From contig CAXXFF010000003.1 in the NCBI GenBank assembly GCA_963676835.2, forward strand, positions 640,001 through 704,000: a stretch of DNA of 64,000 nt. The letters are read 5' to 3'. Both the position numbers and the translations under genes were made by a program. Below the pieces are notes generated by a model, which did not search any database, had not been told where the DNA came from, and saw nothing but the letters and a program-made list of their open reading frames with translations. The DNA is from Marispirochaeta sp. GTDB lineage: Bacteria; Spirochaetota; Spirochaetia; JC444; Marispirochaetaceae. Position 1 is the first letter of the stretch. Each line of letters opens with the position of its first letter. Shown one piece after another: positions 29,924 to 48,317 of the stretch.

Positions 29924-30666
29924 ATACTTTGTTTATACGATATTCAAGAAACAATCCATTCCACCTTATGATTATAAATACACTCAAAGAGTATTCAGTC
30001 TTTTTGTTCCAAAGATTTTACTATGACCGATCACCCATTGGGATTACTAAATTCAAACAAGTATCTTCCCATTTTGAACCAGAATAAACATCAAGGATTG
30101 TAAAACGAATGACTGTTTCACCGTCATCTATTTTCTTCGGCAAACGTATCTCCTGAAACTGCGGTGTATCAGTAAGCACTACCTCGAAATCAATATCATG
30201 TTCTTCAATTTGAATCCGCATTTTTTTTATTCGAGAGTTATATTCATATAAATAAGGTTTTGAAAAATCCACATACCCATTAGAAATCAGCAGAAAATCA
30301 ACCGGCCAGTTCCACGTCACGGTTTCAATTTCGAACCATTCGCCAATACCCTGCCCGTCAATACCTTCTACCCAGGGGATGTTATCAGTAGAGGAAAATT
30401 GAATGGTGTTTTGACCATTGTAATCTTTATTGCCTTCAACCAAGGATGAACTACTACGAACTGAAACAACCCTTGGGTTTGCCCCACTCCATCTCAATCC
30501 CTCATCAGAACTAAACAAGAGAAAATTCTTATCAAATAAAAGTAATTTTCGAGGATGCACAAGCATTCCCAGTTTTTCTTTGTAAGTGTAATTTTTATTG
30601 CTGCTCAGGTATAAGTAATCAAAGTTATATTCTTTTTTTGATTGCCAGGTACCACGTTCGTAATAA
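29924..30666. repeat. Direct repeat copy A (~740 bp): 3' two-thirds of the candidate immunity gene plus downstream DNA
   Basis: Aligns by eye with 34667-35409 at offset 4743, with scattered substitutions. Confidence 0.9.
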
Positions 30667-30944
30667 GAGCTATTTGGAAATACAGAATCAGTCTTAATAG
30701 GCTGAGGTAAACTAAATCTTAAGGACGATTCTTTATTTTGGGCATTATCCAAGCGAAACTCATAAAAAGATCGATCAAACAAAAAATTGCCCATATAACA
30801 TGAGTAACCACTTTGGTCGAGCTTAACATAATCAAATCCTCCAAAGTAGCTTAGACGATTATTTAACTCGATTGGTCCTAAATAATCTTCTGCAAGACAT
30901 ACCAAAACCAAATTCAGTATTATGAAAATTATAACTTTATTCAT
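30021..30944 (-). CDS. Exported NADase-type (discoidin-like) glycan-binding domain protein; candidate immunity protein for the orphan Rhs tip
   Basis: Signal peptide; SSSL..., PWVEGIDGQGIGEW, ISNGY...YNSRIKK, ILDVYSGSKWEDTC; AT-rich; 20 nt after the orphan toxin stop. Confidence 0.75.
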   Translation of the reverse strand: MNKVIIFIILNLVLVCLAEDYLGPIELNNRLSYFGGFDYVKLDQSGYSCYMGNFLFDRSFYEFRLDNAQNKESSLRFSLPQPIKTDSVFPNSSYYERGTWQSKKEYNFDYLYLSSNKNYTYKEKLGMLVHPRKLLLFDKNFLLFSSDEGLRWSGANPRVVSVRSSSSLVEGNKDYNGQNTIQFSSTDNIPWVEGIDGQGIGEWFEIETVTWNWPVDFLLISNGYVDFSKPYLYEYNSRIKKMRIQIEEHDIDFEVVLTDTPQFQEIRLPKKIDDGETVIRFTILDVYSGSKWEDTCLNLVIPMGDRS

Positions 30945-30964: not shown

Positions 30965-32065
30965 TCACCTAGTCCAGTTCTTTGGAGTTTCATAACTAAA
31001 ACCCAATATACTCATGCCAAAACTTTCACCTTGTTTAAAACCAATCCCATCAATCGAATTTCTTAACCTTTCATAATCTTTGTTAGAAAAAATTTGGCAC
31101 CCCCAACTCAGAGCATTAGGCCGCTCTGGAAAATTTTTACTACCAGTTGAATGTATCCAAAAATTCCAAATCTTCTCAATTCCTTTTTTCTCAAGACCAT
31201 GGAGTTGTGCTGTTTCACTTGTTATTGACATAGCGTTCTTATAACTATTGGTTTCTCCGATTAGCTCTACTTGATAATCCTCACCAATAGGAAGTGTTGC
31301 GTTTGGATAATTTACATTACTTAAATCATCATCATGCTTTTCCAATTCAGTTTGATCTCCCGACCTATAATTCTTCTCACTCTGAACACCCGCATATTCC
31401 TGAAGGACTTGGTTCCCTACATACAGTTTTGCACTATCATTCTGATCAACTCGACCTTCACCTCGCTGAATTTCCAGGTGCGTTTCCTGTTTAAGGTCTC
31501 TTCCCTCATAAGCAAGTATTGGGTTGCCATTTACATCATCTGCATAAACCTCTGCCAAACCCGTTGGATCCACATACTTCAAAGGATTATTACTACAATA
31601 CCCATACCAGTTCATCCCATCCATCGCCGGGTCACTCGACATCCACCGCCCCCGCTTCGGATCAAGATACCGCGCTCCGTAATAATACAACCCTGTCTCC
31701 TCATCGTACTCCTTTCCGGTAAACCGAAACGGAATCACATCCGCCAGGGGATCAGTCTGCTCCTCCCACAGCTCTCCATAAGGAGTATACTCCAGGTGTT
31801 CATATTTCTCACCTTCATGGTCCGTAACAAACTGGGCACTACCTAAATGATCAGGGTGATAGTAGTAGGTATTTACCCGCTCATAGTCGAAGTTGGTACC
31901 GGACACATTGTCCTTTTCCAGGCTCAACCGCGTGGCTATCCTACTTTCTCCAAGGTATATATGCTTACTCTGCCGAAAATCAGACCCTTCGATTACCCCC
32001 TGAAAAAACTGGTCAAAGTACAGGGTTTCCTCGCTGGCACTAAGGTTATATTTACTGGTGCGCAT
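30965..32065 (-). CDS. Orphan Rhs core plus variable C-terminal toxin domain (L,D-transpeptidase-like)
   Basis: YYHPDHLGS, PFRFTGKEYDEETGLYYYGARY, NPLKYVDPTGL, near-identical to the giant gene; different tip containing FWIH-x14-SWGC. Confidence 0.88.
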   Translation of the reverse strand: MRTSKYNLSASEETLYFDQFFQGVIEGSDFRQSKHIYLGESRIATRLSLEKDNVSGTNFDYERVNTYYYHPDHLGSAQFVTDHEGEKYEHLEYTPYGELWEEQTDPLADVIPFRFTGKEYDEETGLYYYGARYLDPKRGRWMSSDPAMDGMNWYGYCSNNPLKYVDPTGLAEVYADDVNGNPILAYEGRDLKQETHLEIQRGEGRVDQNDSAKLYVGNQVLQEYAGVQSEKNYRSGDQTELEKHDDDLSNVNYPNATLPIGEDYQVELIGETNSYKNAMSITSETAQLHGLEKKGIEKIWNFWIHSTGSKNFPERPNALSWGCQIFSNKDYERLRNSIDGIGFKQGESFGMSILGFSYETPKNWTR

Positions 32066-32226
32066 ATTATCCGAGTCGTACAGATATTTTACCTGAGTAT
32101 TGGTGGTATCAAAGCCTACAAGGCGGTTTTCTTCATCCCAGGTGTAGGTTCGTAACCGTCAATTAAACCCCACCTTATGCCGACATCAATGAATGCCCTA
32201 CAATCCTCCCTTAATGGAGGAATCGC

Positions 32227-32556
32227 ATGGTCAAATATAACCGGGAACAGCAGTGTGAACATCTTAGAAATTGGGAAAAAAGCGGGTTAAGCGGGCAGGA
32301 GTATTGCCGGCAGCACGAAATACCACCCACAACGTTTTACAGCTGGAAAAAAGCCGAAAGGAAACGTGCCGTACAAACCGGAATAGGCTCTGAAACAGCA
32401 GCAGCCCGGTTCATACCAGTAAAAAGCTCTTTTCATCATTTATCCGAAAAAGAAACCATAACCATAAAGTTGCACGATATTGTTATTACTCTGCCGGTAA
32501 CAGCAAATCATGACCAGCTAAAAGCAGTATTAACAGCCTTGAGGGTTTATGAATGA
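32227..32556 (+). CDS. tnpA: IS66 accessory protein TnpA
   Basis: WEKSGLSGQEYCRQHEIPPTTFYSWKK HTH; FIPV. Confidence 0.88.
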   Translation: MVKYNREQQCEHLRNWEKSGLSGQEYCRQHEIPPTTFYSWKKAERKRAVQTGIGSETAAARFIPVKSSFHHLSEKETITIKLHDIVITLPVTANHDQLKAVLTALRVYE

Positions 32557-32900
32557 CCCCAGATTTATCAGCCGTACAGATATTTATCCGGCCAGGCATC
32601 ACTGATATGCGTAAAGCAATCAACGGCTTAGTTGTCATGGTGCAGGACTATATGAATGAAAATCCGTTAAGCGGCAATCTGTTTCTGTTCTGCAACCGCG
32701 AACGACGAATCATGAAGGCATTGTATTGGGACCGGAATGGTTTCTGCCTGTGGCAGAAGAAACTGGAAAAGCATAAATTCCCCTGGCCCGTAACTGAAGA
32801 AGATGCTCTTGCCATTACCCCGGAACAGCTATCGATGCTGTTGAAAGGCATCGATTTCTGGAATGAACATACTACTTTGGAATATTCCCGTGTTTCTTAA
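32553..32900 (+). CDS. tnpB: IS66 accessory protein TnpB
   Basis: TDMRKAINGL, LFLFCNR, YWDRNGFCLWQKKLE, FPWP. Confidence 0.95.
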   Translation: MTPDLSAVQIFIRPGITDMRKAINGLVVMVQDYMNENPLSGNLFLFCNRERRIMKALYWDRNGFCLWQKKLEKHKFPWPVTEEDALAITPEQLSMLLKGIDFWNEHTTLEYSRVS

Positions 32901-32962
32901 AGCATTTTAATGGTGTAAAGGAATTTACAGAGAAAGAGCTGTATGCTAGAATTTTTTTCAGT

Positions 32963-34492
32963 ATGGATGTTGCAGCCCTTCCGAAGGAAGTACAAGACTA
33001 CATTCACTCTCTTGAGACAGCAAACAGTTCCTGGGAACATCGCTACGGTGCCTTGGAGGAGCAGTACAAGTTGCTTCTTCTTCAGAAATTTGGCCGTAAA
33101 AGTGAAAAAGAACAACAGGATGAGTATCAACCGCTGTTGTTCGGACTTGAAGAGAATGGTACTTCGGAGAACGATGCATCAGAGACTTCCGTACCAGTTC
33201 AGTCCCATCCCCGCAGGAAATCCGGCAGAAAACCAATTGATGAAAGCCTTCCCCGGGAAGAGATCATCATTGATATTCCCGAAGATGAAAAACAGTGTGC
33301 CTGCGGCCATGCGCTGGTTCGTATCGGCGAAGAGACCAGCGAGCGCTTACAGGTAATCCCCCCGAAGATGTGGGTAGAACTGATTATCCGTCCCAAGTAT
33401 GCCTGCAAGAACTGTGAAGGCTCCGGGGATGAAGAGAAGCCGGCAGTAAGGGTTGCTGCCCCCCCTGCAAGTATCATCCCTAAAAGCATTGTAACGCCTG
33501 GATTGCTCTCCTTCATCATAGTGAATAAATTTGTAGATCATCTGCCCTATTACCGGCAGGAGAAACGATTTGAGCGGATCGGCATCCACATAAGCCGTCA
33601 GAACATGAGCAACTGGCAGCAGATGACGTATGAAAAGATTGAACCTTTAATTGAGACTCTGAAAATGCATATCCGGTCAGGGCCGGTCATCAACATGGAT
33701 GAAACCCCGGTCCAGGTACACGGAGAACCGGAACGCCCAGACACGGCGAAATCCTATATGTGGCTTGCCCGCGGCGGCCCTCCGGAAAACCCGGGATTGC
33801 TTTACTCATACCGGGAAACCCGCGGGTCCCGACATATTAAAGAACTTCTCGATGGATTCAGCGGCTTTTTACAGACTGACGGCTATGATGCGTATCGTAC
33901 AGCCCTGGCGGGGAATGAACAGATAGTCCATGTCGGCTGCATGGCCCATGTTCGGCGAAAGTTTCATGAAGCTGCAAAGGCCTCGAAGAAAGCAGCAAGT
34001 GCACAGGAAGCATTGAATGCCATCAGGAAACTGTATGGGATTGAAGAGCGTCTTCGCAGTATGGAATTGCCCGAAGACCAGTTTGTTGACCAGCGCAAAT
34101 CTCAGGCGGAACCGGTTTTGCAGAAGTTTAGAACCTGGCTTGAAAAACGCAGTCAGCAGGTTCCTCCTTCGTTATTGCTTGGGAAAGCAATTCAGTACAC
34201 CTTGAACGAATGGGAGAAACTGGTACACTACCTTGATTCGCCTTATCTGACGCCGGACAACAATAGCGCGGAGCAGGCCATCCGGCCATTTGTGCTGGGC
34301 CGAAAGAACTGGTTATTTTCCGGTAGTCCAAAGGGGGCTGAAAGTTCCTGTGCCATGTATTCACTGATTGAGACAGCCAAACAAAATAATGTGAACCCGA
34401 ACGACTACCTGAGACGCGTTTTTGAGGAAGCTCCACTCATGAATGAATCTGATAACTGGGAAAAATTGCTGCCATGGAATATTTCCCTCTGA
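32963..34492 (+). CDS. tnpC: IS66 transposase TnpC
   Basis: FGRKSEK, Zn finger, HLPYYRQ, MDETP, LQTDGY, CMAHVRRKF, DNNSAEQAIRPFVLGRKNWLF, LLPWN. Confidence 0.96.
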   Translation: MDVAALPKEVQDYIHSLETANSSWEHRYGALEEQYKLLLLQKFGRKSEKEQQDEYQPLLFGLEENGTSENDASETSVPVQSHPRRKSGRKPIDESLPREEIIIDIPEDEKQCACGHALVRIGEETSERLQVIPPKMWVELIIRPKYACKNCEGSGDEEKPAVRVAAPPASIIPKSIVTPGLLSFIIVNKFVDHLPYYRQEKRFERIGIHISRQNMSNWQQMTYEKIEPLIETLKMHIRSGPVINMDETPVQVHGEPERPDTAKSYMWLARGGPPENPGLLYSYRETRGSRHIKELLDGFSGFLQTDGYDAYRTALAGNEQIVHVGCMAHVRRKFHEAAKASKKAASAQEALNAIRKLYGIEERLRSMELPEDQFVDQRKSQAEPVLQKFRTWLEKRSQQVPPSLLLGKAIQYTLNEWEKLVHYLDSPYLTPDNNSAEQAIRPFVLGRKNWLFSGSPKGAESSCAMYSLIETAKQNNVNPNDYLRRVFEEAPLMNESDNWEKLLPWNISL

Positions 34493-34527
34493 TTTTTTTC
34501 TCTGGGTGAGGTTTAATTGACGGTTAC

Positions 34528-34650
34528 GTATCAAAGCCTACAAGGCGGTTTTCCTCATCCCAGGTGTAGGTTCTGCAATAGGTGCTTGCCTGGTCGTCCT
34601 CTTCCGTACGCATAAGGGCAAAACCGCGGTTTACGCTGCGAAGGTCTCCG
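34528..34650 (-). pseudogene. Rhs homology fragment (GDLRSVNRGFALMRTEEDDQASTYCRTYTWDEENRLVGFDT)
   Basis: Matches 37793-37915 of the giant gene with 2 visible substitutions; its first 46 bp also repeat on the other side of IS66. Confidence 0.88.
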
Positions 34651-34666
34651 ATTATTGATAGTTTAA

Positions 34667-35409
34667 ATACTTTGTTCATACGGGGATCAAGGAACAATCC
34701 ATTCCATCTTATGATTATAAATACACTCAAAGTGTATTCAGTCTTTTTGTTAGAAAGATGTTACTATGGCCGATCACCCATTGGTATTACTAAATTCAAA
34801 CAAGTATCTTCCCATTTTGAACCAGGATAAACATCAAGGATGGTAAAACGAATTATTGTTTCACCGTCATCTATTTTCTTCGGCAAACGTATCTCCTGAA
34901 ACTGCGGTGTATTAGTTAGCTCTACTTCGAATTCAATATCATGTTCTTCGATTTCAATCCGCATTTTTTTTATTCGAGAGTTATATTCATATAAATAAGG
35001 TTTTGCAAAATCCACATACCCATTAGAAATCAGCAGAAAATCAACCGGCCAGTTCCACGTCTCGGTTTCAATTTCGAACCATTCGCCAATACCCTGCCCG
35101 TCAATACCTTCTACCCAGGGGATGTTATCGGTTGAAGAAAATTGAACGGTATTTTGACCATTGTATTCTTTAATACCTTCAACAAAGGATGAACTACTAC
35201 GAACTGAAACAACCCTTGGGTTTGCTCCACTCCATCTCAATCCCTCATCAGAACTAAACAAGAGATAGTTTTCATCAAAAAGAAGCAGTTTACGAGGATG
35301 CACAAGCATTCCCAGTTTTTCTTTGTAAGTGTAATTATTATTGCTTCGTAGGTATAAGTAATCAAAGTTATTTTCTTTTTTTGATTGCCAGGTACCATGT
35401 TCATAGTAT
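34667..35409. repeat. Direct repeat copy B (~740 bp)
   Basis: Counterpart of 29924-30666. Confidence 0.9.
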
Positions 35410-35687
35410 TCACTCCCTACTGTAAGTCCACTATCTTTCAATGGATCAGGATACACAAAGAAAGCTGACGGGATGCGCTTCTCAGATAAACCTATCATAT
35501 ACTCGTAAAACTTTATATCAAACAAAAAGTCTCCAATAAAATTGGATGTTCCACCTCCATCAAGAAGAACTCGATCAAATGCGCCAAAAAAACTAATACG
35601 TTTCTCTAATCTTACAGGCTCTATATTGTTTTCTGCGACGAGACTAATTGATAGAGATAGCAAAAAAACAAATAAAATTTTTTTCAT
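34764..35687 (-). CDS. Exported NADase-type glycan-binding domain protein; candidate orphan immunity protein
   Basis: Signal peptide; C-terminal ~210 aa nearly identical to 30021-30944, N-terminal ~95 aa divergent. Confidence 0.75.
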   Translation of the reverse strand: MKKILFVFLLSLSISLVAENNIEPVRLEKRISFFGAFDRVLLDGGGTSNFIGDFLFDIKFYEYMIGLSEKRIPSAFFVYPDPLKDSGLTVGSEYYEHGTWQSKKENNFDYLYLRSNNNYTYKEKLGMLVHPRKLLLFDENYLLFSSDEGLRWSGANPRVVSVRSSSSFVEGIKEYNGQNTVQFSSTDNIPWVEGIDGQGIGEWFEIETETWNWPVDFLLISNGYVDFAKPYLYEYNSRIKKMRIEIEEHDIEFEVELTNTPQFQEIRLPKKIDDGETIIRFTILDVYPGSKWEDTCLNLVIPMGDRP

Positions 35688-35720: not shown

Positions 35721-36635
35721 TTATTCTCTTTGCGAAAATATACTGGTCAGTCTATTGTATTCATCAGCACCCAACTCATGGTGCTCCTTCAAAGACTGAT
35801 CGTCAAGTTCAGAAAAAATACCAGACACCGCTGTATCGTTATATTTATATCCCGGATAAACTTCTATAATTTTTATTTTTATCTTTTTTACTTCCCGCGG
35901 AAAGTATACTGTATGAAATCTTACTTCATCAATAAAACGATATTCTATAGAAAAATTATCATAGTCATCATTCGAAATGATTTTGATTGTTTTTAGTCTA
36001 TTATTTGCTTTGTACAACGCTCGATTTGATAAATCTATATAACCATTCATAATGGAAATATTTTGATATGATTCATTAAATTCAACGTCAATCTCCTCAC
36101 CAATTCCTGGTCCTTCAACACCTTCAACCCAAGGGTAGGTTGATGAGAATGTTCCCCAAAACGGTTTAGAATTGATATTCCAGAATTCTCCATGATAGCC
36201 CATATCAATAACTACGTGTTTTAAATTTTCACTTTTGTATTGAATTAGATTCCCGTTAATCACTTCTTGAAAAAAACTTGTTGCGGTTATATCGCTTATA
36301 ATCGGTTTTACATTTGTATCTACAATAAGTACATCTTTATAGCCCCTGGGCTTCTCGAGATTATTAAAAAGAACGCTTGATCTATCTCCAAGAATAACGA
36401 TATATGTTCTATCCGAAGTTTTTAGATAACCGTAACCATCTTCTTCATAGCTAATATCTTCTTCATTGAAAGAATAGAAGCAATTACAAGCAGAATCAAA
36501 GATATAGCCTTTCCCTGAATAAAAAGCTATTTTTTTGTCAGGGTTAATCTGATCGATAAAGTTATATTCAAATGGTGTTGAGAAAAGATCTGTAATAACT
36601 ATAAACAATATTAAAATATAAGTATTTCTTGGCAC
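35721..36635 (-). CDS. Exported NADase-type glycan-binding domain protein; candidate cognate immunity protein of the giant toxin
   Basis: Starts 1 nt after the toxin stop; hydrophobic N-terminus; PWVEGVEGPGIGE, IMNGY...ANNRLK, EVYPGYKYNDTA; very AT-rich. Confidence 0.75.
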   Translation of the reverse strand: MPRNTYILILFIVITDLFSTPFEYNFIDQINPDKKIAFYSGKGYIFDSACNCFYSFNEEDISYEEDGYGYLKTSDRTYIVILGDRSSVLFNNLEKPRGYKDVLIVDTNVKPIISDITATSFFQEVINGNLIQYKSENLKHVVIDMGYHGEFWNINSKPFWGTFSSTYPWVEGVEGPGIGEEIDVEFNESYQNISIMNGYIDLSNRALYKANNRLKTIKIISNDDYDNFSIEYRFIDEVRFHTVYFPREVKKIKIKIIEVYPGYKYNDTAVSGIFSELDDQSLKEHHELGADEYNRLTSIFSQRE

Positions 36636-36636
36636 T

Positions 36637-39600
36637 TCAAAACTCCTTTAACAGACCATTTATTATTGTCCCTTCTTGTATCCCCCAAGATTCCATAAAA
36701 TCAATTGAATCGTTGAATTCAGACGATGATGGGATAAAACAGCCATCACTACCTTTATTGTTGTAATCAACTTCTGGATTACCAAGACTCGCATTTCCAT
36801 GATAAAGCCAGCGCCCACCTCTATTTGCACCTCCTCCAACGGCATTCCCGTCACGTCCAATAACTGTGCCATCTATGGTTGATGTATTTTGAATCTCCAG
36901 AACAACTCCAGGAATGGATCCACTTGTTGATTTATACTCCATATCAAATTTACCTGGAGCAATAGTATTACCCTGTAACTGTGAGCCAGATATAGGCTGG
37001 TCTCGATTGCCTTCAGTTTGAATATCTACTGTCTGTAACCCTCCAACAAAATGCTTGCCCTTTTCTCCAAGAATAGTCTCTGCTGAAATGACCAGAAAAT
37101 CTTTCCCTTGGGTATCCAACTCACCATATTTACTTTCATAACTCGATCTACTTCGAAATACCTCTGCAGTGAACTTTGTAGGTTCATATTGTCGGTCGGT
37201 AATAATTTCACCCGTTTTAACATGCTCACCGATAACATCTGCCAACCCCGTAGGATCCACATACTTCAAAGGATTATTACTACAATACCCATACCAGTTC
37301 ATCCCATCCATCGCCGGATCACTCGACATCCATCTCCCCCGCTTCGGATCAAGGTACCTCGCTCCGTAATAATACAGCCCCGTCTCCTCATCATACTCCT
37401 TTCCGGTAAACCGGAACGGAATCACATCCGCTAACGGATCAATCTGTTCCTCCCACAGCTCTCCATAAGGAGTATACTCCAGGTGTTCATATTTCTCACC
37501 TTCATGGTCCGTGACAAACTGGGCACTGCCTAAATGATCAGGGTGGTAATAGTAGGTATTTACCCGCTCATAATCGAAGTTGGTACCGGAAATATTATCC
37601 TTCTCCAGGCTCAACCGCGTGGCAATTCTGCTTTCCCCCAGATAAATATGCTTACTCTGCCGGAAATCTGACCCTTCGGTTACCCCCTGAAAAAACTGGT
37701 CAAAGTACAGGGTTTCCTCGCTGGCACTAAGGTTATATTTGCTGGTACGCATATTATCTGCGTCATACAGATATTTTACCTGGGTGTTGGTGGTATCAAA
37801 GCCTACAAGGCGGTTTTCCTCATCCCAGGTGTAGGTTCTGCAGTAGGTGCTTGCCTGGTCGTCCTCTTCCGTACGCATAAGGGCAAAACCGCGGTTTACG
37901 CTTCGAAGGTCTCCGTCGACGGACAGAGTGGACTCCCCAGCCTCAGCCTCGGCGGAAGGCCCGCCTTTCCGTTCTTCTATAACATTGCCGTTTTTATCGT
38001 AGGAGTAATAAATATTGCCTATCCACTGTACCCGGTGAGGTGTTCCCTCATAGTAGCTGTACTCCTGCTCATAATTGAGGGCACCCTTGGGGGTGGTTGA
38101 AGGAACATAACGCTGGCTGGAGTTTTTCTGCTGAAAGTTCCCCAGGCTGTCATAGACATAGTCCTGACTATAGATACTGGTAGTTACATCAATGCCGTCC
38201 GGATGGTGCCGGTAGGTGCCATCCGCTCCGGTCAGCTGGTTTAAGGCATCGTAACCATAGGTCTGGGTTGTGGTGTAGCCGTACACATCGTTGGTATACC
38301 CGGTTATGTTACCCACCGTATCAAAACTGTAGCTAATGTTCTGGTAGCGCCGGGCTGCCCCTTCCTTCCCGGTTTCTATGCTGTCCAGCCAGCGGCGGTA
38401 GGGGTTGTAGGTGTAATGTGTTTCAACGCTGTTGCCGTACTTCATGTACACCCTCTGGCCGTAGGTGTCGTAGCCGATGTCTTCTATATAGGTAGTAGAC
38501 TGCCCCTTGGTGATTCCGGTGACACTCTGCACCTGACCACCGGTGTTGTAGGTATAGGCAACTGTTTCCCCGTCGGGATAGGTAATCTCTTCCAGCCGGC
38601 CCAGGTAGTCGTATACAAACGAGGTACTGGCCGTTTCCGCATCAAGGGTCTGATCCAGACGATTCAGGGTTCTGATGGTTTCACTTACTTCGCCGAGCTT
38701 TCCGTAGGCATATTCGATGGTCCCCGAAGCATCGCTGCGAGTTATAAGTCTACCCGCAAGGTTATCGGCAGTGTCTACCGGGCTACCGTAGGCGTATTCC
38801 GTTGCGGTTGTTTTCGGGTAATTGACTCTAATTAAGCGGTTCAGTCCATCGTAGTCGTACCGGATGGATCTGCCGGAAGCGCGGAGATTTGAATCGATTT
38901 TTTCCGTCAGGTTGCCTGAATCATCATACCTGAACACAATTTTACCTGCATCATAACTTTCTACACTTGTTCTGCGGCCTGCCAGATCGTACTGGTAAGT
39001 CACAGGGTATGTTAAACCTGTTTCCAGCTGGTGTTCAAGGCTCTGCTGCAGCTCACCCAGGGGTGAGTAGCTGTATTCCGCTTTTTTCAATATTCTGCTG
39101 CCGGAATCGAGCATACGAAGTTCCGCAACCTGCCCCCGGATGTTTTTCAGGGTTTCCGTTCTGTTCTGCTTCGGATCGATGGTCAGTTCCCGCATCGTAT
39201 TACCTTCAATGCCATATTCCATCTGCATTTCTGCATCGTCATCGGGATCTTTAGGATCATCGGGGAATACAATATGCTTTACCCTGTCCAGGGGGTCGTA
39301 GGTTTTTATGGTAGGAAGAGACAAGCCCGCCAGGGCCGGCAGAACCGTGTTAAGCCCGCCGGAGACAGGCTGGCTGTCTGCTGTTTCCAAAAACACCGTC
39401 TGTCCTTCCTGGACAGTCCGGCCTGCACCGTCCTGTGCAATCAGCCCGGAACAGTTCCAGCCGTAGAGAGTATCATTTCCATCCCTCACCTCACCCTCTT
39501 TGGCTGTCTGAATAATCCGGCCCAGTCCGTCCGCAAAGGTAGCGGTGAGCATATCCTCACTGGAGGCAGTATCGTGGCTGATTTTGTTTACCGTTACTGC

Positions 39601-42600
39601 AGTCCATGGGAAACTCTCCGTTCGGTACTGAAAGGCAACAGCAGGCATGTCGCCGCTGTCCGGTTCATAGGGGCTTCTTACCCGGGCCATACGGCCGAAG
39701 CTGTCATACTCCCGGTACTGGCTGTTCAGGTTCTGGTCGGTAAGCTGCAGTTCTTTGCCGTATTTATAGTCCCACTGCATGCTGGTGGAATAGCTTGGCG
39801 TACCGGAAATAATAGAGTTGCCCGTACCAATAGTAAGCGGGAATGTATGCACACTGCTGTCGTAAACAACAGCAGTTTCACAACCCCGGGGATCAATAAC
39901 GGAAGTCAGGTTGCCAAACCCGTCATACGCAAGGGTATGCAGGGTATAGTCATCCCTGGTGTAGTACTGTTCAAGCTGCCTGAGGTTTCCGGTATCAGCG
40001 AAATACCGCCCTATGCGCTTGCGCAGGAGATTATCTTCGGCATCATACACAAGAATGGTTTCCGGGTGGGCATGCATATAGGCGTCTGCATCGAGATCGG
40101 CATAGGTAATTTCTGCCCGCATGTCATCCTCGGGGTCGCCCACAAGGCCTGCATCGGTAAGCTCCCGGACATTACCGTAGGAATCATACAGAGTATATTC
40201 CATCAGCTTATCCAGCCTGGCGCCGGTTTCCTGGTCGAAAACGGTTTCCGTTTCACTCTCCAGCCGGGGAATAACGCTGCCGGAGGCAAAGGGAATATAG
40301 CTGTAGGTCATGGAGCTTTCACTGTATTCCTGTGCCGCCGGATCGAGAGGATGCACGTCGTAGACGGCCCGTTTGATCAGCAGCCCCCGGCGGAAAAAGT
40401 TATCGTCATAGGCAGGATCAACCGCATAGGTGTCCTCCTGTACCGAAGCAATGGCGGTGTTTGCAGGAACCTCGGAATCGTAGTTTTCATAGCGCAGGGT
40501 TCTGACGGTGGTAAAGCCGCAGAACATCCGTTCCGTTCTATCGTATACACCCTGTTCAAACTCAAAACCCGTAACAAACTCATGGGCTCCGGGACGTTCA
40601 GTATCGCCTTCAATGCCGTCCTTCATGGTGATTGTTTCAGGGACCCATCTGCTCTGGGGCATTTCCACGGTGTTACCCACTCGTTTGTAGCTCAGCTCGG
40701 TGCTGCCGCCGAAGGGGGTATGGATGGTTTTCAGCAGGCCAACCGTGCCGAGGGCGGATTCCATTACCCGGATTCTGTTTTCTCCAGGTACCCGTAAAAC
40801 ATGGTCGGGAAGCCCGTCGCCGGTAATATCCTGAAACTTTAAACTTGTAGATGTATGTACATACGAACCACTTATTCCCGGAGTCATTTCAAACAGGATT
40901 AACCACAACACAGGGATTTGAAATGTTACCGTACCGTTTACCCCGAGGGAAAGACCGGCGGAATATTCCAGCGTATCATCAACATTAAAGGGATTCAAAC
41001 CGGCACCAAACTTATCTATAAAATCAAGTCCCCCAAGATCTATAGAGAAATCAGGAAGAGCTGATATATCGATGCCTGTAAAATTTCTTACCGCGGAAGT
41101 TATTTCATTACAAATTGATGCGGTCATCATTCCTGCAAAATTTATACCAGACCAATCGGGCCTATAAATTTTAACCGGTTCTTCCGCGAAAGTATCGCCT
41201 AAATTGAAGCAGACCTCAAAGAATCCTTCATCAGGCATTTTTGCCACCTGGTCAGGTAAGCCGTCTCCATTCATGTCCAGCATACGATAAATAGTTCGAT
41301 TCACAGAACCAGTTTCACTCCCGCTTGCGCCGAAACCGATAGCACCGGCAGTTACGCCGGTTGATACCGATCCACCGAAACTACCTGCATTGCTGTATTC
41401 AATTCCTTCTGACTCTTGCTGGCTTTCGAATATTTCGGGCAACAAAACTTTATATAGCCCCCCATTCCATTGAGTTTGTGGATCGAAACCGTTTCCGGTA
41501 TTCAGGGCAACTGAAGAGGACCCGCTGCCAGTACGCTCCAACTGGTCCGGCAAACCATCTCCATTGATATCCCTGAAACCGATGTTCTGGATATTAGACG
41601 AGGTAGTGCCGTTTATGCTTACACTTGCACCGGAAGAACCATCCGTAGCAGTTATCTGGTTGGATTCAACCTTTCCATCCTTATAAGTCTGCATAATCCC
41701 GCCAATAACCGCCATGGGGGAAGAACCGAAGCCGTAACATTCATTGCTGCTTTTTGTCATATAATTGAGTCTGGCTGACAACCCCGTTTCGTTCTGCAGT
41801 GTAAACGTATTATCTGATGCTATGCTTCCATACTGCACCGTAACAGAAGTACCGCCATCTGAAGGGAACTGGACTACATCCGGATACCGATCGCCGTTGA
41901 TATCTATAAAATCCTTGTACATCCATGAATTACCGGTATTCCTGCTTCCACCGATAAGATTCATAAACGCGCTGAGATTGATATCAACGTTGTCATTCTT
42001 GCTTTTTCTCAAATCGCCCAGCTGTCCCTGACCACATAATGTAGAGCTTGTAGGTGCTGAATAATAGAGGTCACCACCTAAACGTGCCGGGTGATACCTG
42101 TCTTCCTGCAAATAGGGAGCAAACGTATATTCATTAAATACCATTGTGCCTGTTTCATCCCATTCAGCTTCAGAATAGGAAGAATTGCTGCCAATCCAGG
42201 CGTTTTCAGGTACAAGTTCCTTGTATACGCGCCCGTCCTCAGTAATTTTATAGGAATCATCCTCCTCGCTATAGTTAGGTGACATCGCTAAAAACCAGGG
42301 TGGATCAACAGGATCACTGCTCTGCAATACCTCAAGGGAAGGAACCTCTCCGTTGCCCTCTTCATATTCGGGTACTTCTACAAGCTTCTCGGCATCCCAG
42401 TCGTAATACCCGGTCCAGACTCCGTAAAACCAGCCATGAACTCCACCGGCAAAAGATTCTCGGCTGTAAGATTTTTTGGACAGATTATTAAGATAATCAC
42501 CCTCCGATGAAGAAGGCAGGCTTTCAGGAAATTTTGCAAGGATAAGATTATCCAGAGCGGAATAATCGATAAGGTTTAGATCCGAGTAATCGGAGAGAGA

Positions 42601-45600
42601 ATCAGCCTGACGGAAAAGAACTTTTTTATTTATCGATATACCTTCACTGTCAAATACCGGCAAGCGGCAGCTGCCTGCAGAAACATCTGTAACAGTTGTA
42701 TCCGAATTTTCCGGTGAGAAACTCGTTAGCGCTGTTTCACTCACCAATCCTTCGTCGGTGACTTCAAAATCACCATTGGCATTATAGATAATTCCCCTCT
42801 CAAGCTCAGTCCAGGTCCGGATGCCAAGATCCGATAAAGATGAAATAACAACTGCAGTATCCTCAGGCTTATCAAGAATGTCCTTTATCACATAGTTACT
42901 GTCGTCATCAGAGTAGAATGGAAAAACCTCATCCATCGCACGGTAACGGCCGCATGCTAAAGTGAATAATGCCGTTTGATCAACGTTAAAATTTTGCTGC
43001 AGTGAATACCAGTTATTTAAATCTGAATCTAAGTACTCTACAAATAATTCAGTAATATCATTACGTATCCCTGCATCCTGAGAAGCCAGGAAAATTGCAA
43101 ATTCATCTTCACTTAACAGAATAATTCCCTGTATGCCGGGGTCAATAGTATCAAGGATTGAATCCGGAATATCATGAAGAGCATCAGTTTGCTGTAGATA
43201 TATAAGCAGGCCGCTTTCAAACCCCGGGCCTTTCGGCATATAAGTATCCAAAAACTCATCATATTCAAAAGAATCTGTCATAGAGAGAAGATCAGCCTCG
43301 CTTAGCCCAGAAGAGGCTGCCAGCCAGTCAGTGCTGCTTACGGGAAAAAGAGAGGAAACCCCATACTGCTCCCCGGAAATTACAGAAGGGATAACAGTCT
43401 CTTCGAACAACGCCTCCGGTATCGATTGAAGCAAGGAAGTCTCACCTTCCAAATTAAAAAATCGCGTAATACCATCTTCAACAACTTCACAATGAAACCC
43501 ATCACCTGTTTCGGAGACTGTTCCGGCAGGTGTTGTACCTGATTCATCATGCTTAAGAATTTGTGGTTCTGCTCCTGCATTTAAAATGTATGAATAGGAT
43601 GGATTTTGAGTATCTTCCTCCAGAAAAACCTGGTCCAGTAGAAAACTACCATTTTCAATTAACACCTTTTCACTGCCATTCCAGTCAGCCTCAAGTCGAA
43701 TTTCCGGAGAAAGATCCTCGTCAGTAACCGTAGCAGTAAGCAGACGAAACTCACCGGTAGAATCCGGATAGCCCTGAGGCAAATCTTCTGCATCCGGGTA
43801 CACCAGCGATCGTAAGGCATCCATACCGATAAGTGATCGCCACGGATCATCATATTTACGAATAACTGCAAGTCCGGCTGAATCTGTACAATAATAGACC
43901 TTCTCTTCCGGAGAATAGGTAAAAGAATAAAAAAGTGTATAACGATCAGACGCAGAAATCTGGTGAGTAAAGCCAACGGGAGTAATATTGTAGTCAGGTG
44001 AGACTAAATTAAGCAGAGGTTCAAACATGACTGCAGGAACTCTGGTAAAGTTAAGGTAACAATTTCTTATTAACACATCCTGCAGAGTGGGATTGGCTTC
44101 TACAAGTGCTTTCCAGTTAGAACGACGGTTATAAACCCTGACATTCTGCTCATCGATTTGTTCAAAGGTGGAGGTGTAGAGGGGATCAAATCCCGAATCA
44201 CCATCAGGTAGGCTTCTGTAAGTCTTTAATGGAATGTCCACAAACGTGCTGAGGTCCTCCATTGATTCCAGCAATTTGATAGAGGAGTAGTGAATAGTGG
44301 AGTTCCATAAAACATCATCTCCTCTCGGATCTCCTTTTGTATCAAGATGAAAATATATTGGCTCTCCTTTATTAATATGAACATTTTCAATCTCCAGAGG
44401 GTTTGTACTTACTCCACCTGGCAAAATATCACTGGCAGCTTCTATCCCTCCCGGCGCCCGCACTACAGCAACAGCATCACAATAACTGCTGAACCCGGTT
44501 TCCACAGGAGTAAATGAATTGGACACATTAACGGTTCCGGACCTGTAGGCCTTCCATTTTCTGACTGGCTCCTGAATAAAATAGCCTTTCTCCAGGCTGG
44601 CGCCTTGCTTGCTCGAAACCTCGGCTATTTCACTGCTGTCAGAAGGAGTTTCGATTATCTTTGAAATAAATCCTTTACCCTCATTATTCAGATAATATCC
44701 GTCAAAATCGGTGGCTGCAAAATCTACAAAACCATCTCCATTCAGATCAGAAAAACTGCTTCTTGTTTTTGATTGCCCCCACTGCCAGGTAGTCGATCCG
44801 CTTAAAGGAATAACTCCAGCGGAAAGTCCGAAATTGTATGATGAAGATCGGACCTCATTAACATTTCGCGACAGAGAACCAAAATCTATAGCCTTAGCTC
44901 CAGTGTTGAAAACACCTTCATCCTGAGGGAAACACACCGCATCCTTTCCTCTGGACAATACGACATCTGACAAACCATCTCCGGTTAAGTCCATAAGTGA
45001 CAACTCAGTTCTGGCTTTGGAAGTATTTGCATCGGCACGTAATCCAAAATGGGCATACCGTTCCCACTTAAGGCCGCCAAAGAAATCAATTTTGGGCCCA
45101 TACAGACCAATCCCCGTGTACAGGCTTACACCTACTCCGGAAGTCCGGTCTTCCTGCAGAGCTGGCACTTTGGCAGGATCTTCAAGCACAATGGACCGCT
45201 CCCCTTCCCCGAAACCTTTATACCCGTCACCCTGAACCTCCGGCTCATAGTAATCAAAGCGGTAGCAGTAAAACTCACTGCCGGAGCCGTCGCTTTCGGA
45301 AAGCTCCGCCAACTGGGTCTGGCCGAAAATATTCTGTCCATAGGTAAAATCATAACGCCGGAACATGAGACCGTCATAAGAAACCTCAACACCTTGTAAC
45401 AGGCGGGTCAGCTTGGAGACAAACTTGCCCCGGGCATCGCTGCGACGGTCCGGCCTGGCTTCGGGAGAAGAGTCCATGTCAAAATGAATACGGTAGAGCC
45501 CGGTCGAGCCGTCTCCGGTATGGCCGGAATAACGGATATCGGAAAGATACGCTGTCTTGTTTGCAAGGTCTTTATCGTAGGAATAATCCGCCGTATTACC

Positions 45601-46707
45601 GTTGGAATCAATAATCCTGCTCAAATACCAGTGGTAGATTCTGCTGCGGTCACCCGCATCCGGACCCGTCCAGCCGTCGCCGGTGCCGTAGATACGCTTC
45701 GTTCCGCCCTTGTCGGTAACCTCCCAGCGGCGGTCATCATTCACATACCAGAGTATCCGCTCAAAGCTCCCCTCTTTCCGCCGGATGTACTTCATGGCAC
45801 CGTCTTCCATTTCGCCGCTGAAGAGCAGCTCCTCTCCGTTCAACAGAAAAGTATCTTCCGTATCGTAATCGGGAAGGCCGAAACGGGTATCGATGGAAAC
45901 CGACGGTACACTTATGTCAAAGCCCCGGCCCATCCAGCTGTTCTGCTGTTCCGATGAGTAGGAAACAGACAGCTGAGGCGTTGCGGAACCCCGCCCTTTG
46001 GGAATGCGTAAAGGCAGTGAAAAGCCTGCGCCCCCCATGGTGTCCGCCTTAAGGCCCTGCACCCGGGGAACCTCCGCCGTTGGGTCGGCTGCTTTGAGGT
46101 CTTTTATACTGTTGACATTAAACTCCACCGCCTGAGGCCCTTCCGGCAAAGTCAGGGTGGAGGTAATCATATCGGTAAAATGGGTGGTAAGGCTGGTAAT
46201 AACTGCGGCATCATGGTCGATACCGTAACGTTCAAGCTTGTTCCATTTTCCCGGAGCCTCATCATAATACCAAGTGTAAAGATTGGAGAGAGCTGTTTCC
46301 GAAGCAAGTATCTGCCTGTCGAAGGGAAGGGAGACTTTAACCGCCCGGGAAAAGGTCTGTCCGTCGGGGAGAAAACGGTATCCTGCCGCCCCGGAGGTTA
46401 CATTGGCCATACCGCTGTTAAGCCGGGCAATATTGCTAAGCTTTTCTACGGTAATGACGGTAGTTTTGCTTACTGCCCCGGAGGGGACCTCCATGGAGAC
46501 CTCGGGCGAGCGGAACACTCCTCCTTCCCCGGGAGTAACGGTAAACTCGGCAATAACCTCATTGCCCGGTTCCTCACTCACCTGTACCGCCGGCGTGGTT
46601 GGAGAGAGAGAAACCTCTCCGGGTTGGGCGAAAACAGGGGGAGCAACGGAGCTCAAAAAGAACAGCTCCAGAAGGAAAAAGCTTATTAGCCGGTTTCTTA
46701 TATTCAT
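36637..46707 (-). CDS. Giant TcB/TcC-like SpvB-FG-GAP-TcdB_midN-Rhs polymorphic toxin with Sec signal peptide and ZU5-like N-terminal domain
   Basis: Signal ending PPVFA|Q; SpvB motif GGAGFSLPL...PQLSVSYSS...WMGRGFD; six DxxGD(G/R)xxD repeats; GLLKTIHTPFGGSTELSY; many YD repeats; Rhs core ending DPTGL; ~200-aa AT-rich tip. Confidence 0.92.
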   Translation of the reverse strand: MNIRNRLISFFLLELFFLSSVAPPVFAQPGEVSLSPTTPAVQVSEEPGNEVIAEFTVTPGEGGVFRSPEVSMEVPSGAVSKTTVITVEKLSNIARLNSGMANVTSGAAGYRFLPDGQTFSRAVKVSLPFDRQILASETALSNLYTWYYDEAPGKWNKLERYGIDHDAAVITSLTTHFTDMITSTLTLPEGPQAVEFNVNSIKDLKAADPTAEVPRVQGLKADTMGGAGFSLPLRIPKGRGSATPQLSVSYSSEQQNSWMGRGFDISVPSVSIDTRFGLPDYDTEDTFLLNGEELLFSGEMEDGAMKYIRRKEGSFERILWYVNDDRRWEVTDKGGTKRIYGTGDGWTGPDAGDRSRIYHWYLSRIIDSNGNTADYSYDKDLANKTAYLSDIRYSGHTGDGSTGLYRIHFDMDSSPEARPDRRSDARGKFVSKLTRLLQGVEVSYDGLMFRRYDFTYGQNIFGQTQLAELSESDGSGSEFYCYRFDYYEPEVQGDGYKGFGEGERSIVLEDPAKVPALQEDRTSGVGVSLYTGIGLYGPKIDFFGGLKWERYAHFGLRADANTSKARTELSLMDLTGDGLSDVVLSRGKDAVCFPQDEGVFNTGAKAIDFGSLSRNVNEVRSSSYNFGLSAGVIPLSGSTTWQWGQSKTRSSFSDLNGDGFVDFAATDFDGYYLNNEGKGFISKIIETPSDSSEIAEVSSKQGASLEKGYFIQEPVRKWKAYRSGTVNVSNSFTPVETGFSSYCDAVAVVRAPGGIEAASDILPGGVSTNPLEIENVHINKGEPIYFHLDTKGDPRGDDVLWNSTIHYSSIKLLESMEDLSTFVDIPLKTYRSLPDGDSGFDPLYTSTFEQIDEQNVRVYNRRSNWKALVEANPTLQDVLIRNCYLNFTRVPAVMFEPLLNLVSPDYNITPVGFTHQISASDRYTLFYSFTYSPEEKVYYCTDSAGLAVIRKYDDPWRSLIGMDALRSLVYPDAEDLPQGYPDSTGEFRLLTATVTDEDLSPEIRLEADWNGSEKVLIENGSFLLDQVFLEEDTQNPSYSYILNAGAEPQILKHDESGTTPAGTVSETGDGFHCEVVEDGITRFFNLEGETSLLQSIPEALFEETVIPSVISGEQYGVSSLFPVSSTDWLAASSGLSEADLLSMTDSFEYDEFLDTYMPKGPGFESGLLIYLQQTDALHDIPDSILDTIDPGIQGIILLSEDEFAIFLASQDAGIRNDITELFVEYLDSDLNNWYSLQQNFNVDQTALFTLACGRYRAMDEVFPFYSDDDSNYVIKDILDKPEDTAVVISSLSDLGIRTWTELERGIIYNANGDFEVTDEGLVSETALTSFSPENSDTTVTDVSAGSCRLPVFDSEGISINKKVLFRQADSLSDYSDLNLIDYSALDNLILAKFPESLPSSSEGDYLNNLSKKSYSRESFAGGVHGWFYGVWTGYYDWDAEKLVEVPEYEEGNGEVPSLEVLQSSDPVDPPWFLAMSPNYSEEDDSYKITEDGRVYKELVPENAWIGSNSSYSEAEWDETGTMVFNEYTFAPYLQEDRYHPARLGGDLYYSAPTSSTLCGQGQLGDLRKSKNDNVDINLSAFMNLIGGSRNTGNSWMYKDFIDINGDRYPDVVQFPSDGGTSVTVQYGSIASDNTFTLQNETGLSARLNYMTKSSNECYGFGSSPMAVIGGIMQTYKDGKVESNQITATDGSSGASVSINGTTSSNIQNIGFRDINGDGLPDQLERTGSGSSSVALNTGNGFDPQTQWNGGLYKVLLPEIFESQQESEGIEYSNAGSFGGSVSTGVTAGAIGFGASGSETGSVNRTIYRMLDMNGDGLPDQVAKMPDEGFFEVCFNLGDTFAEEPVKIYRPDWSGINFAGMMTASICNEITSAVRNFTGIDISALPDFSIDLGGLDFIDKFGAGLNPFNVDDTLEYSAGLSLGVNGTVTFQIPVLWLILFEMTPGISGSYVHTSTSLKFQDITGDGLPDHVLRVPGENRIRVMESALGTVGLLKTIHTPFGGSTELSYKRVGNTVEMPQSRWVPETITMKDGIEGDTERPGAHEFVTGFEFEQGVYDRTERMFCGFTTVRTLRYENYDSEVPANTAIASVQEDTYAVDPAYDDNFFRRGLLIKRAVYDVHPLDPAAQEYSESSMTYSYIPFASGSVIPRLESETETVFDQETGARLDKLMEYTLYDSYGNVRELTDAGLVGDPEDDMRAEITYADLDADAYMHAHPETILVYDAEDNLLRKRIGRYFADTGNLRQLEQYYTRDDYTLHTLAYDGFGNLTSVIDPRGCETAVVYDSSVHTFPLTIGTGNSIISGTPSYSTSMQWDYKYGKELQLTDQNLNSQYREYDSFGRMARVRSPYEPDSGDMPAVAFQYRTESFPWTAVTVNKISHDTASSEDMLTATFADGLGRIIQTAKEGEVRDGNDTLYGWNCSGLIAQDGAGRTVQEGQTVFLETADSQPVSGGLNTVLPALAGLSLPTIKTYDPLDRVKHIVFPDDPKDPDDDAEMQMEYGIEGNTMRELTIDPKQNRTETLKNIRGQVAELRMLDSGSRILKKAEYSYSPLGELQQSLEHQLETGLTYPVTYQYDLAGRRTSVESYDAGKIVFRYDDSGNLTEKIDSNLRASGRSIRYDYDGLNRLIRVNYPKTTATEYAYGSPVDTADNLAGRLITRSDASGTIEYAYGKLGEVSETIRTLNRLDQTLDAETASTSFVYDYLGRLEEITYPDGETVAYTYNTGGQVQSVTGITKGQSTTYIEDIGYDTYGQRVYMKYGNSVETHYTYNPYRRWLDSIETGKEGAARRYQNISYSFDTVGNITGYTNDVYGYTTTQTYGYDALNQLTGADGTYRHHPDGIDVTTSIYSQDYVYDSLGNFQQKNSSQRYVPSTTPKGALNYEQEYSYYEGTPHRVQWIGNIYYSYDKNGNVIEERKGGPSAEAEAGESTLSVDGDLRSVNRGFALMRTEEDDQASTYCRTYTWDEENRLVGFDTTNTQVKYLYDADNMRTSKYNLSASEETLYFDQFFQGVTEGSDFRQSKHIYLGESRIATRLSLEKDNISGTNFDYERVNTYYYHPDHLGSAQFVTDHEGEKYEHLEYTPYGELWEEQIDPLADVIPFRFTGKEYDEETGLYYYGARYLDPKRGRWMSSDPAMDGMNWYGYCSNNPLKYVDPTGLADVIGEHVKTGEIITDRQYEPTKFTAEVFRSRSSYESKYGELDTQGKDFLVISAETILGEKGKHFVGGLQTVDIQTEGNRDQPISGSQLQGNTIAPGKFDMEYKSTSGSIPGVVLEIQNTSTIDGTVIGRDGNAVGGGANRGGRWLYHGNASLGNPEVDYNNKGSDGCFIPSSSEFNDSIDFMESWGIQEGTIINGLLKEF

Positions 46708-46756: not shown

Positions 46757-47428
46757 CTATAATTCGGTAAAAATCACATGCACCGATTCCTGAGGGAAAC
46801 TGTCTTCAGGAGAGATAACCACCAGATACCCGTTAGCCCCGCTCTGGTGCAGAGGCGGTTCCTCATCGAGAAATGTTGTTTCCAGCACATCGTTCAGATA
46901 GAGCTGATAGTTGCTTTCGCTGTTATCCCAGACAACCCGGATGCGGTTGCCTTTGTTGTAACCGTCAAGCAGGTTGTCCGAATCGGTCCAGGGAAAAAAC
47001 GGAAAGAATTCATCATCGACAACTTCTCCCACAATGTATTCAGCCGATGCATTTATCAGAACCACCAGCATGGTTTCCCCTGTATCCGGGTCGCCTGAGT
47101 CATAGTGGCAGAGAACAATTCCGTATCCTGCGACATCAGACCCGGAAACCTTATTACACTTTACTTCCCGTTCTGAAAAAGGATCTGCACTAGTACCGTT
47201 TAAAGCCCACAGGGTGTACCCCAGGGGGCTCCACCAGGCGGTATCGTTGGTAAGAAAAACAACTTCCCCCGGCCCACCGCCGTCAACAAAAAGCTCCCCC
47301 ACCTCTGCGATATCTTCACCGCCGGTACCGGAAGATGTGGCAGGTGTCGGGGTTACCGGACACCCGGTCAAAAGAACTGATAGAATAACCAGACCGAGGC
47401 AGAGACATCCTTCAATACGATTCTTCAT
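46757..47428 (-). CDS. Lipoprotein, beta-sandwich (concanavalin/DUF1080-like) domain suspected
   Basis: Lipobox VLLTGC; GYGIV...NRIRVVW...YQLYLND pattern; starts 1 nt after the upstream stop. Confidence 0.7.
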   Translation of the reverse strand: MKNRIEGCLCLGLVILSVLLTGCPVTPTPATSSGTGGEDIAEVGELFVDGGGPGEVVFLTNDTAWWSPLGYTLWALNGTSADPFSEREVKCNKVSGSDVAGYGIVLCHYDSGDPDTGETMLVVLINASAEYIVGEVVDDEFFPFFPWTDSDNLLDGYNKGNRIRVVWDNSESNYQLYLNDVLETTFLDEEPPLHQSGANGYLVVISPEDSFPQESVHVIFTEL

Positions 47429-47429
47429 A

Positions 47430-48251: not shown

Positions 48252-48317
48252 TTTTGCTCCTGTTTTTTTGTTTTCTTTTTTCTATTCATCTCTTCATTTC
48301 TACTTTTACCAGATTCT

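Follow-up and report, generated by a model that had tools for sequence, protein, structure and literature searches.

The window analysed here, a 64,000-nucleotide stretch of a Marispirochaeta sp. genome, contains on its reverse strand an open reading frame of 3,356 amino acids (36637..46707), which joins a carrier to a putative C-terminal toxin. Pfam identifies an SpvB domain (aa 224-381), a TcdB_toxin_midN domain (aa 1952-2071), FG-GAP repeats and YD/RHS repeats in the carrier, and NCBIfam an Rhs core (aa 3078-3155) with the motif DPTGL at its end (aa 3151-3155; 37257-37243). The N-terminus resembles a signal peptide when judged by eye. A segment close to it was taken, from a resemblance seen by eye, to be possibly ZU5-like; Pfam and PDB sequence searches of the carrier gave no ZU5 match and returned spurious WD40 matches alone. 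Promoter and terminator counts at the locus equal those of shuffled sequence.

The 201 residues that follow DPTGL (tip 1; 37242-36640, or 36637..37242 with the stop codon, reverse strand) are predicted to adopt a YkuD/L,D-transpeptidase (LDT) fold. They include NTIAPGKF (aa 3247-3254), WLYH (aa 3300-3303) and SDGCFI (aa 3320-3325), and in the composite motif WLYH-x16-SDGCFI the gap between His and Ser is exactly 16 residues. The predicted catalytic triad consists of H3303 (36801-36799), G3304 and C3323 (36741-36739), joined by S3320. These elements had been picked out in the initial annotation, and all of them, DPTGL included, are present at the positions given here. The consensus to which it had compared them, H-x14-17-(S/T)HGC, holds for the spacing and for His, Ser and Cys, but the residue before GC is Asp and not His. 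The pattern H-x14-17-[ST]xGC arises by chance in 0.11% of 100,000 shuffles of tip 1, and among 2,362 genome frames of at least 300 amino acids the carrier ORF is the single one that has it within the last 100 residues.

The toxin frame is followed on the same strand by i1 (35721..36635), which starts with GTG one nucleotide after the toxin stop codon and encodes a 304-residue candidate cognate immunity protein with a PF25302/NF047619 domain. A second PF25302 gene, i2 (34764..35687, 307 aa, reverse strand), has no tip of its own and is likely an orphan immunity gene. Beyond it lie a fragment of an Rhs carrier (34528..34650, reverse strand; 98% DNA identity to 37793-37915) and an IS66 element with three ORFs (32152..34527, forward strand), which interrupts an orphan cassette. 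This cassette comprises an Rhs core, 93% identical in DNA sequence to 37234-37838, with tip 2 of 196 residues and the motif H-x12-SWGC (together 30965..32151, reverse strand), and a third PF25302 gene, i3 (30021..30944, 307 aa, reverse strand), a candidate immunity gene for tip 2. The i2 and i3 proteins are 75% identical, and all three partners combine a start that looks like a signal peptide by eye with the PF25302 domain. Tips and partner genes are AT-richer than the carrier (GC 0.32-0.40 versus 0.49). With its tips, orphan cassette and secreted partner genes, the layout is that of a polymorphic toxin locus. Tip 1 and i1 also occur, without differences, in one contig of one DNA run, possibly the source of the window itself.

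Tip 2 matches the tip 1 family profile at E 2e-5, hhalign gives a probability of 46% with His and GC aligned, and both tips share their nearest Atlas clusters; these sequence comparisons place tip 2 as a remote relative within the His/Cys family of tip 1. No longer homologue of tip 2 was found, the search having returned tip 2 itself and nothing else. On either side of the IS66 element stands one copy of a 46-bp direct repeat (window 32106-32151 and 34528-34573), and the two copies differ at a single position. Direct repeats of IS66 usually measure 8 bp, and the longer one may have arisen when two cassettes recombined. After i3, the segment 26964-29987 contains genes that appear mazE-like and mazF-like by eye. 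The mazF-like frame continues into an IS21 element (istA/istB), and near the secretin cluster on contig C1 of the genome lies another IS21 copy with an identical beginning.

A scan of 1.84 billion representatives yielded 54 matches to tip 1 at E ≤0.001, and the family alignment, 57 proteins minus four repetitive matches, has 53 rows. His and Cys are invariant in all 53, while Ser is conserved in 50/53 and Gly in 44/53; before GC, the four commonest residues are Asp (36/53), Lys (6), Gly (4) and Glu (3). Searches against Pfam, NCBIfam and PDB sequences assigned no family to tip 1. The Pfam YkuD profile (PF03734) does not match it at E values up to 10 and touches two of 34 family members, with a best E of 0.016. 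An AlphaFold2 model built from 34 sequences (pLDDT 92.5, pTM 0.88) was compared with 48,161 chains. The top 20 matches are all of YkuD/LDT type (Z 6.2-10.8) and the next unrelated chain reaches 3.4, which bears out the YkuD-type fold that the initial annotation had proposed for checking by AlphaFold and Foldseek. Pgp2 is the best match (Z 10.8, rmsd 3.8, 129 residues aligned; Foldseek E 2.9e-4), followed by Csd6 (Z 10.4), Bd1075 (9.1), DpaA (7.3) and Tlde1a (6.8), and several transpeptidases match at Z 6.2-9.1; sequence identity over the structural matches is 10-16%. By predicted fold and motif, tip 1 belongs to the YkuD/L,D-transpeptidase superfamily.

Pgp2, Csd6 and Bd1075 share with tip 1 the spacing of the His-Gly...Cys triad and are its closest structural matches (Z 9.1-10.8), but they are housekeeping enzymes and not toxins, are 10-12% identical to it, and Pgp2 and Csd6 contain an NTF2 domain. 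The available text on Csd6 gives the LDT motif as H(S/G/D)X14-19C and places Lys174 two residues before the Cys (PMC4599014). Tip 1 fits this motif as H-G-x18-C and, like Csd6, has no His two residues before the Cys; because Csd6 has a Lys at that place, activity of tip 1 is still possible. In Tlde1a, according to the accessible part of its description, the His before GC helps to position D-Ala4 (PMC9638812). Tip 1 has Asp instead, and its substrate or specificity may therefore differ.

Tip 1 resembles the Tlde1/DUF2778 effectors (Tlde1a, PDB 7UMA) in its LDT fold, in His, Ser and Cys and in a predicted periplasmic wall target, and some Tlde1 members are fused to Rhs, as reported in the available text of a preprint on DUF2778 (10.1101/2020.02.18.954545). 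In contrast to Tlde1, tip 1 has SDGC and not SHGC, a single Cys and no disulfides, and it is attached to a Sec-type carrier with a different partner gene and no detected T6SS markers. PF10908 (DUF2778) matches none of 34 family members, and the nearest Atlas cluster containing the Tlde1/DUF2778 family scores only 0.82 against tip 1. Assignment to Tlde1/DUF2778 was thus rejected for lack of a PF10908 match, for the SDGC motif and for the missing T6SS markers, and by profile tip 1 falls outside this family, with which a parallel had been drawn earlier. The T6SS setting of a Tlde1-like effector is likewise not borne out: searches of the 97%-complete genome detected the controls but neither VipB nor Phage_base_V.

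A closer precedent is Tox-LD-peptidase, which Zhang et al. (2012) listed in Table 2 with RHS repeats, ZU5 and TcdB/TcaC export (PMC3482391). As far as the available part of that paper goes, both systems have a C-terminal L,D-peptidase domain with H, S and C on an RHS protein, a TcdB/TcaC-type carrier (signal peptide, SpvB, beta-propeller) and a linked immunity gene. The carrier described here has the features of TcdB/TcaC export, namely SpvB, an integrin-like propeller and RHS according to Pfam and a signal peptide by eye. The immunity proteins given for Tox-LD-peptidase are Imm16 and Imm57, and no spirochaetes are listed in the sections consulted (PMC3482391). The partner here is instead a PF25302 protein, a difference that comes from comparison with the table and not from an alignment; i1 matches PF25302/NF047619 alone, and neither Imm16 nor Imm57. 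Tip and carrier would work like a Tox-LD-peptidase or Tlde1 toxin, and the class is that of the TcdB/TcaC-type polymorphic toxins, not Tlde1.

The i1 protein consists of a variable N-terminal beta region and the C-terminal PF25302/NF047619 domain. In its model (pLDDT 76.7), residues 105-280 match CBM32/discoidin folds with a best Z of 14.9, and the N-terminal half was barely probed. In the phylum, the tip profile matches 23 of 401 genomes, and a record of Treponema socranskii contains a family member; a single-tip pattern scan of genome contigs found no relative. Across 30 loci, a homologue of the window's partner occurs in 19/19 carrier or orphan loci and in 0/11 stand-alone loci. In wider regions, a PF25302-type gene lies directly after 19 of 21 His/Cys tips versus none of 28 other tips, although the partner profile used for this count was built partly from the counted genes themselves. 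The 28 other tips had a visible next gene, three further tips had none, and three open-ended frames, two frames without a tip and two duplicates were left out. Pfam independently places PF25302 after 17/17 His/Cys tips versus 0/21 other tips scanned. The two exceptions among the 21 come down to an IS in one case and a split gene in the other. The related genomes in all these counts are kin and not independent samples.

Since a PF25302 gene follows 19/21 His/Cys tips and 0/28 other tips, i1 is likely the immunity protein of tip 1. The link between tip and PF25302 runs one way. PF25302 is common in the phylum (222/401 genomes), and three more secreted PF25302 genes without a tip upstream are found in the host genome (C2:1525815, C2:1433548, C4:339943); the domain is therefore not dedicated to immunity, and the scattered tipless genes could be orphan immunity genes or unrelated lectins. 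Complex prediction for tip 1 with mature i1, using alignments, gave no answer, at a score of 0.00 in both runs. A literature search for PF25302 or its names found no mention.

The SpvB-type carrier is present in 60 of 401 genomes, and its tips vary widely in the 20 regions read. Pfam names 4 of 19 such tips, as NlpC/P60, M23 and two DUF6973, leaving 15 unnamed and assigning no nuclease or ADP-ribosyltransferase name within this set. By eye, several further tips are presumably papain-type or M15 peptidases, one an HNH and one a restriction-type nuclease. Because NlpC/P60, M23 and similar tips are found, wall-directed tips are not exceptional on this carrier. The initial annotation had called the cargo unusual for a shell that more often carries nucleases or ADP-ribosyltransferases; wall-lytic tips on related carriers, and the listing of Tox-LD-peptidase in 2012, speak against this view.

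Most long homologues of the tip are attached to a second carrier of 2,500-3,900 residues that is unrelated to Rhs. These proteins are related to one another, and no family was found for 18 of 19 scanned in Pfam or for 2 of 2 in NCBIfam. Examples (P0008, P0014, L038:3359-12295, L039:3248-12808, L040, L043-L046) look secreted and have variable C-terminal tips followed by varied partners, including ankyrin, RCC1-like, SH3 and PF25302 proteins. The second carrier is apparently an unannotated polymorphic toxin carrier of spirochaetes. In an unrooted tree of 52 rows, from which neither direction of transfer nor donor is claimed, tip 1 and three Rhs-borne tips cluster together (100/100); a larger group of 34 rows (98/99) encloses this cluster, and 29 of the 34 are on the second carrier. 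The nesting of Rhs-borne tips among second-carrier tips indicates that the tip moved between carriers. At another locus (L041:8469-15754), a clostripain-family gene stands before the gene for a 1,981-residue Rhs protein that lacks SpvB, bears a related tip and has a PF25302 protein as its partner.

Tip 1 also matches phrog_26752 (E 7e-11), a group of phage proteins of unknown function. These direct sequence relatives share the H...S-x-GC motif but, unlike tip 1, are stand-alone proteins of 175-240 residues in the late operons of Mu-like prophages, with neither carrier nor partner gene. In all six prophage regions read, the homologue has small membrane genes and phage genes as neighbours. It is next to or just before the terminase genes in five, two of which have it close after the late activator, and among head genes in the sixth. 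The neighbouring small membrane proteins have weak spanin or holin matches (E 2e-5 to 6e-3). In phage Mu, the lysis genes stand in this late-operon position. Small membrane ORFs follow the homologue in 16/16 viral contigs and a partner gene in none, orf48 of phage TJE1 is another member of the tip family, and structure matches among viral proteins include DUF5675 proteins and a lysin. The stand-alone homologues look to occupy the lysis slot of Mu-like prophages, and this position supports wall hydrolysis for the tip. A branch of the unrooted tree (96/92) separates the eight phage rows and G102 (L035:7245-7913), a chromosomal stand-alone gene, from the other rows. G102, from a 1.1-Mb genome, is intact, nested among the phage copies and adjacent to ftsK. 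Its surroundings contain neither phage genes nor a partner gene, and it is possibly a domesticated wall enzyme.

Upstream of the carrier, three genes, two lipoprotein-like and one secreted (46757..49361, reverse strand), are candidate export or anchoring accessories, and a TPR protein (49354..50733, reverse strand) heads the same gene run. Of 20 carrier regions, 7 have all three accessory genes and 10 have one or more of them, and one relative of the secreted gene has a weak match to an outer-membrane beta-barrel; the TPR gene was not found beside related carriers. A secretin gene or gspD/E/F/G cluster adjoins 5/20 carrier regions, four of the five being from one genus. The host genome, which three FlaA genes mark as that of a spirochaete, has a gspD/E/F/G cluster with pseudopilin-like genes (C1:834791-844784). 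This cluster ends in a PEGA-type lipoprotein, a homologue of which occurs in four carrier regions. In L118, L119, L121 and L124, a short secretin gene (~400 aa) lies between the conserved upstream genes and directly before the carrier. In a more distant group (L113, L116, L125, L128), a lipoprotein-like gene of ~500 aa with weak carboxypeptidase-regulatory and propeller matches precedes the carrier instead, and some tips are M15- or M23-like. It is reasonable to infer export by Sec followed by type II secretion. The Tc-type shell named in the initial annotation stands as far as the fused B-C part is concerned; TcA was not found, in searches whose controls were silent too. Three TcA profiles (PF18276, PF03538, PF20220) gave no match in the 97%-complete genome, and there is no TcA-sized gene beside the carrier.

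Taken together, the locus probably encodes an antibacterial polymorphic toxin that combines a secreted shell, self-cleavage, a stem-hydrolysing tip and protection by i1. The carrier, given its signal-peptide-like start, would be exported by Sec and would fold into a fused TcB-TcC/RHS shell, as its domains suggest; this shell architecture is known from structures. It would cross the outer membrane by means of the conserved upstream genes and probably type II secretion, to which the loci are linked. The Rhs core would cleave itself after DPTGL, as the cores of Rhs/TcC proteins do, and would hold the 201-residue tip. In the periplasm of a neighbouring cell, presumably of a related bacterium, the His-Gly-Cys triad may then attack peptidoglycan stems, the tip being most likely a hydrolase (L,D-carboxypeptidase and/or cross-link endopeptidase) and not a cross-linker. 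Co-expressed, secreted i1 would protect the producer in its periplasm, while i2 and i3 would act against tip-2-like variants, as the gene order suggests. The wall-toxin role that had been proposed for the tip is still a prediction, and is favoured by the polymorphic locus, the orphan cassette, the secreted partners and the phage homologues in lysis cassettes.

The same toxin could rely on another chemistry, either that of a transpeptidase, which would exchange D-amino acids or form wrong cross-links, or that of a DpaA/LdtF-like amidase acting on protein–peptidoglycan links. True transpeptidases and DpaA follow closely behind the carboxypeptidases at Z 6-9, the Asp of SDGC departs from the Tlde1a pocket, and Tlde1a itself has dual activity according to the accessible part of its description (PMC9638812). 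This version is nevertheless unlikely: the three best structural matches are shape-determining enzymes, the available texts describe Pgp2 and Csd6 as L,D-carboxypeptidases (PMC8038945, PMC4599014), and the phage homologues, situated in lysis cassettes, need to break more bonds than they form. Rather improbable, too, is a wall toxin whose PF25302 protein serves as a lectin-like delivery or targeting cofactor and not as an inhibitor. The partner lies directly downstream and varies together with the tip, its N-terminal half is variable, it is present as the extra tipless copy i2, and it is absent after 28/28 other tips on the same carriers. The CBM32/discoidin fold of the conserved half of i1 (Z 14.9), the naming of PF25302 by Pfam after a toxin translocation domain, and its wide occurrence without tips would fit such a cofactor.

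A tip directed at the producer itself, which would open its peptidoglycan to release the shell or would anchor the shell, with the partner as a regulator, is very unlikely. No Pfam YkuD enzyme was found in the host genome, and G102 beside ftsK suggests that a housekeeping use exists, but unrelated tips occupy the same carrier position in relatives, and orphan tip–partner cassettes are typical of conflict systems. It is scarcely credible that the protein supplies the B and C parts of a Tc (ABC) complex directed against eukaryotic cells, as the SpvB and TcdB_toxin_midN domains could suggest. The protein shares SpvB, TcdB_midN, an RHS shell and a core with DPxG with Tc B-C subunits and differs from them in the fusion of B and C, the signal peptide, a wall-type cargo with immunity-like genes after it, and the lack of a detectable TcA nearby. 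The absence of TcA is unproven, given the silent search controls; against a Tc complex stand the three TcA-family profiles that remained unmatched, the lack of an adjacent TcA-sized gene, and a tip with the fold of peptidoglycan enzymes.

The central combination is not new, since the 2012 prediction already placed an L,D-peptidase tip on an Rhs carrier of TcdB/TcaC type, which limits the surprise. What looks new is a spirochaete clade of LDT-fold tips missed by Pfam, a secreted PF25302 partner with a CBM32/discoidin fold as the likely immunity protein, the kinship of the tip with phage lysis-slot genes, the presence of the same tip family on a second, unannotated carrier of ~3,000 residues, and the linkage of carrier loci to type II secretion genes. 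The literature searched for polymorphic toxins of spirochaetes, fusions lacking TcA, endolysins of YkuD type and links to secretins, a search outside which most subscription papers fell, does not describe this clade. Literature on interbacterial toxins of spirochaetes is sparse, and no such system was found described in it.

More tentatively, and with some doubt, these loci may represent a previously undescribed spirochaete competition system. Wall toxins of LDT fold would be delivered both by B-C shells that lack TcA and leave through type II secretion and by the second, unannotated carrier; they would be kin to a new class of Mu-like prophage endolysins, phrog_26752, and would be blocked by a new, CBM32/discoidin-based immunity family. 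The locus in the window would be a small toxin–immunity set of two tips and three partner genes. If true, this would give a function to the phrog_26752 phage family, as an unannotated family with a lysin role, to part of PF25302, as a named lectin-fold immunity family, and to G102 in its reduced genome. Type II secretion would then be an exit for B-C shells that work without TcA and without a T6SS.
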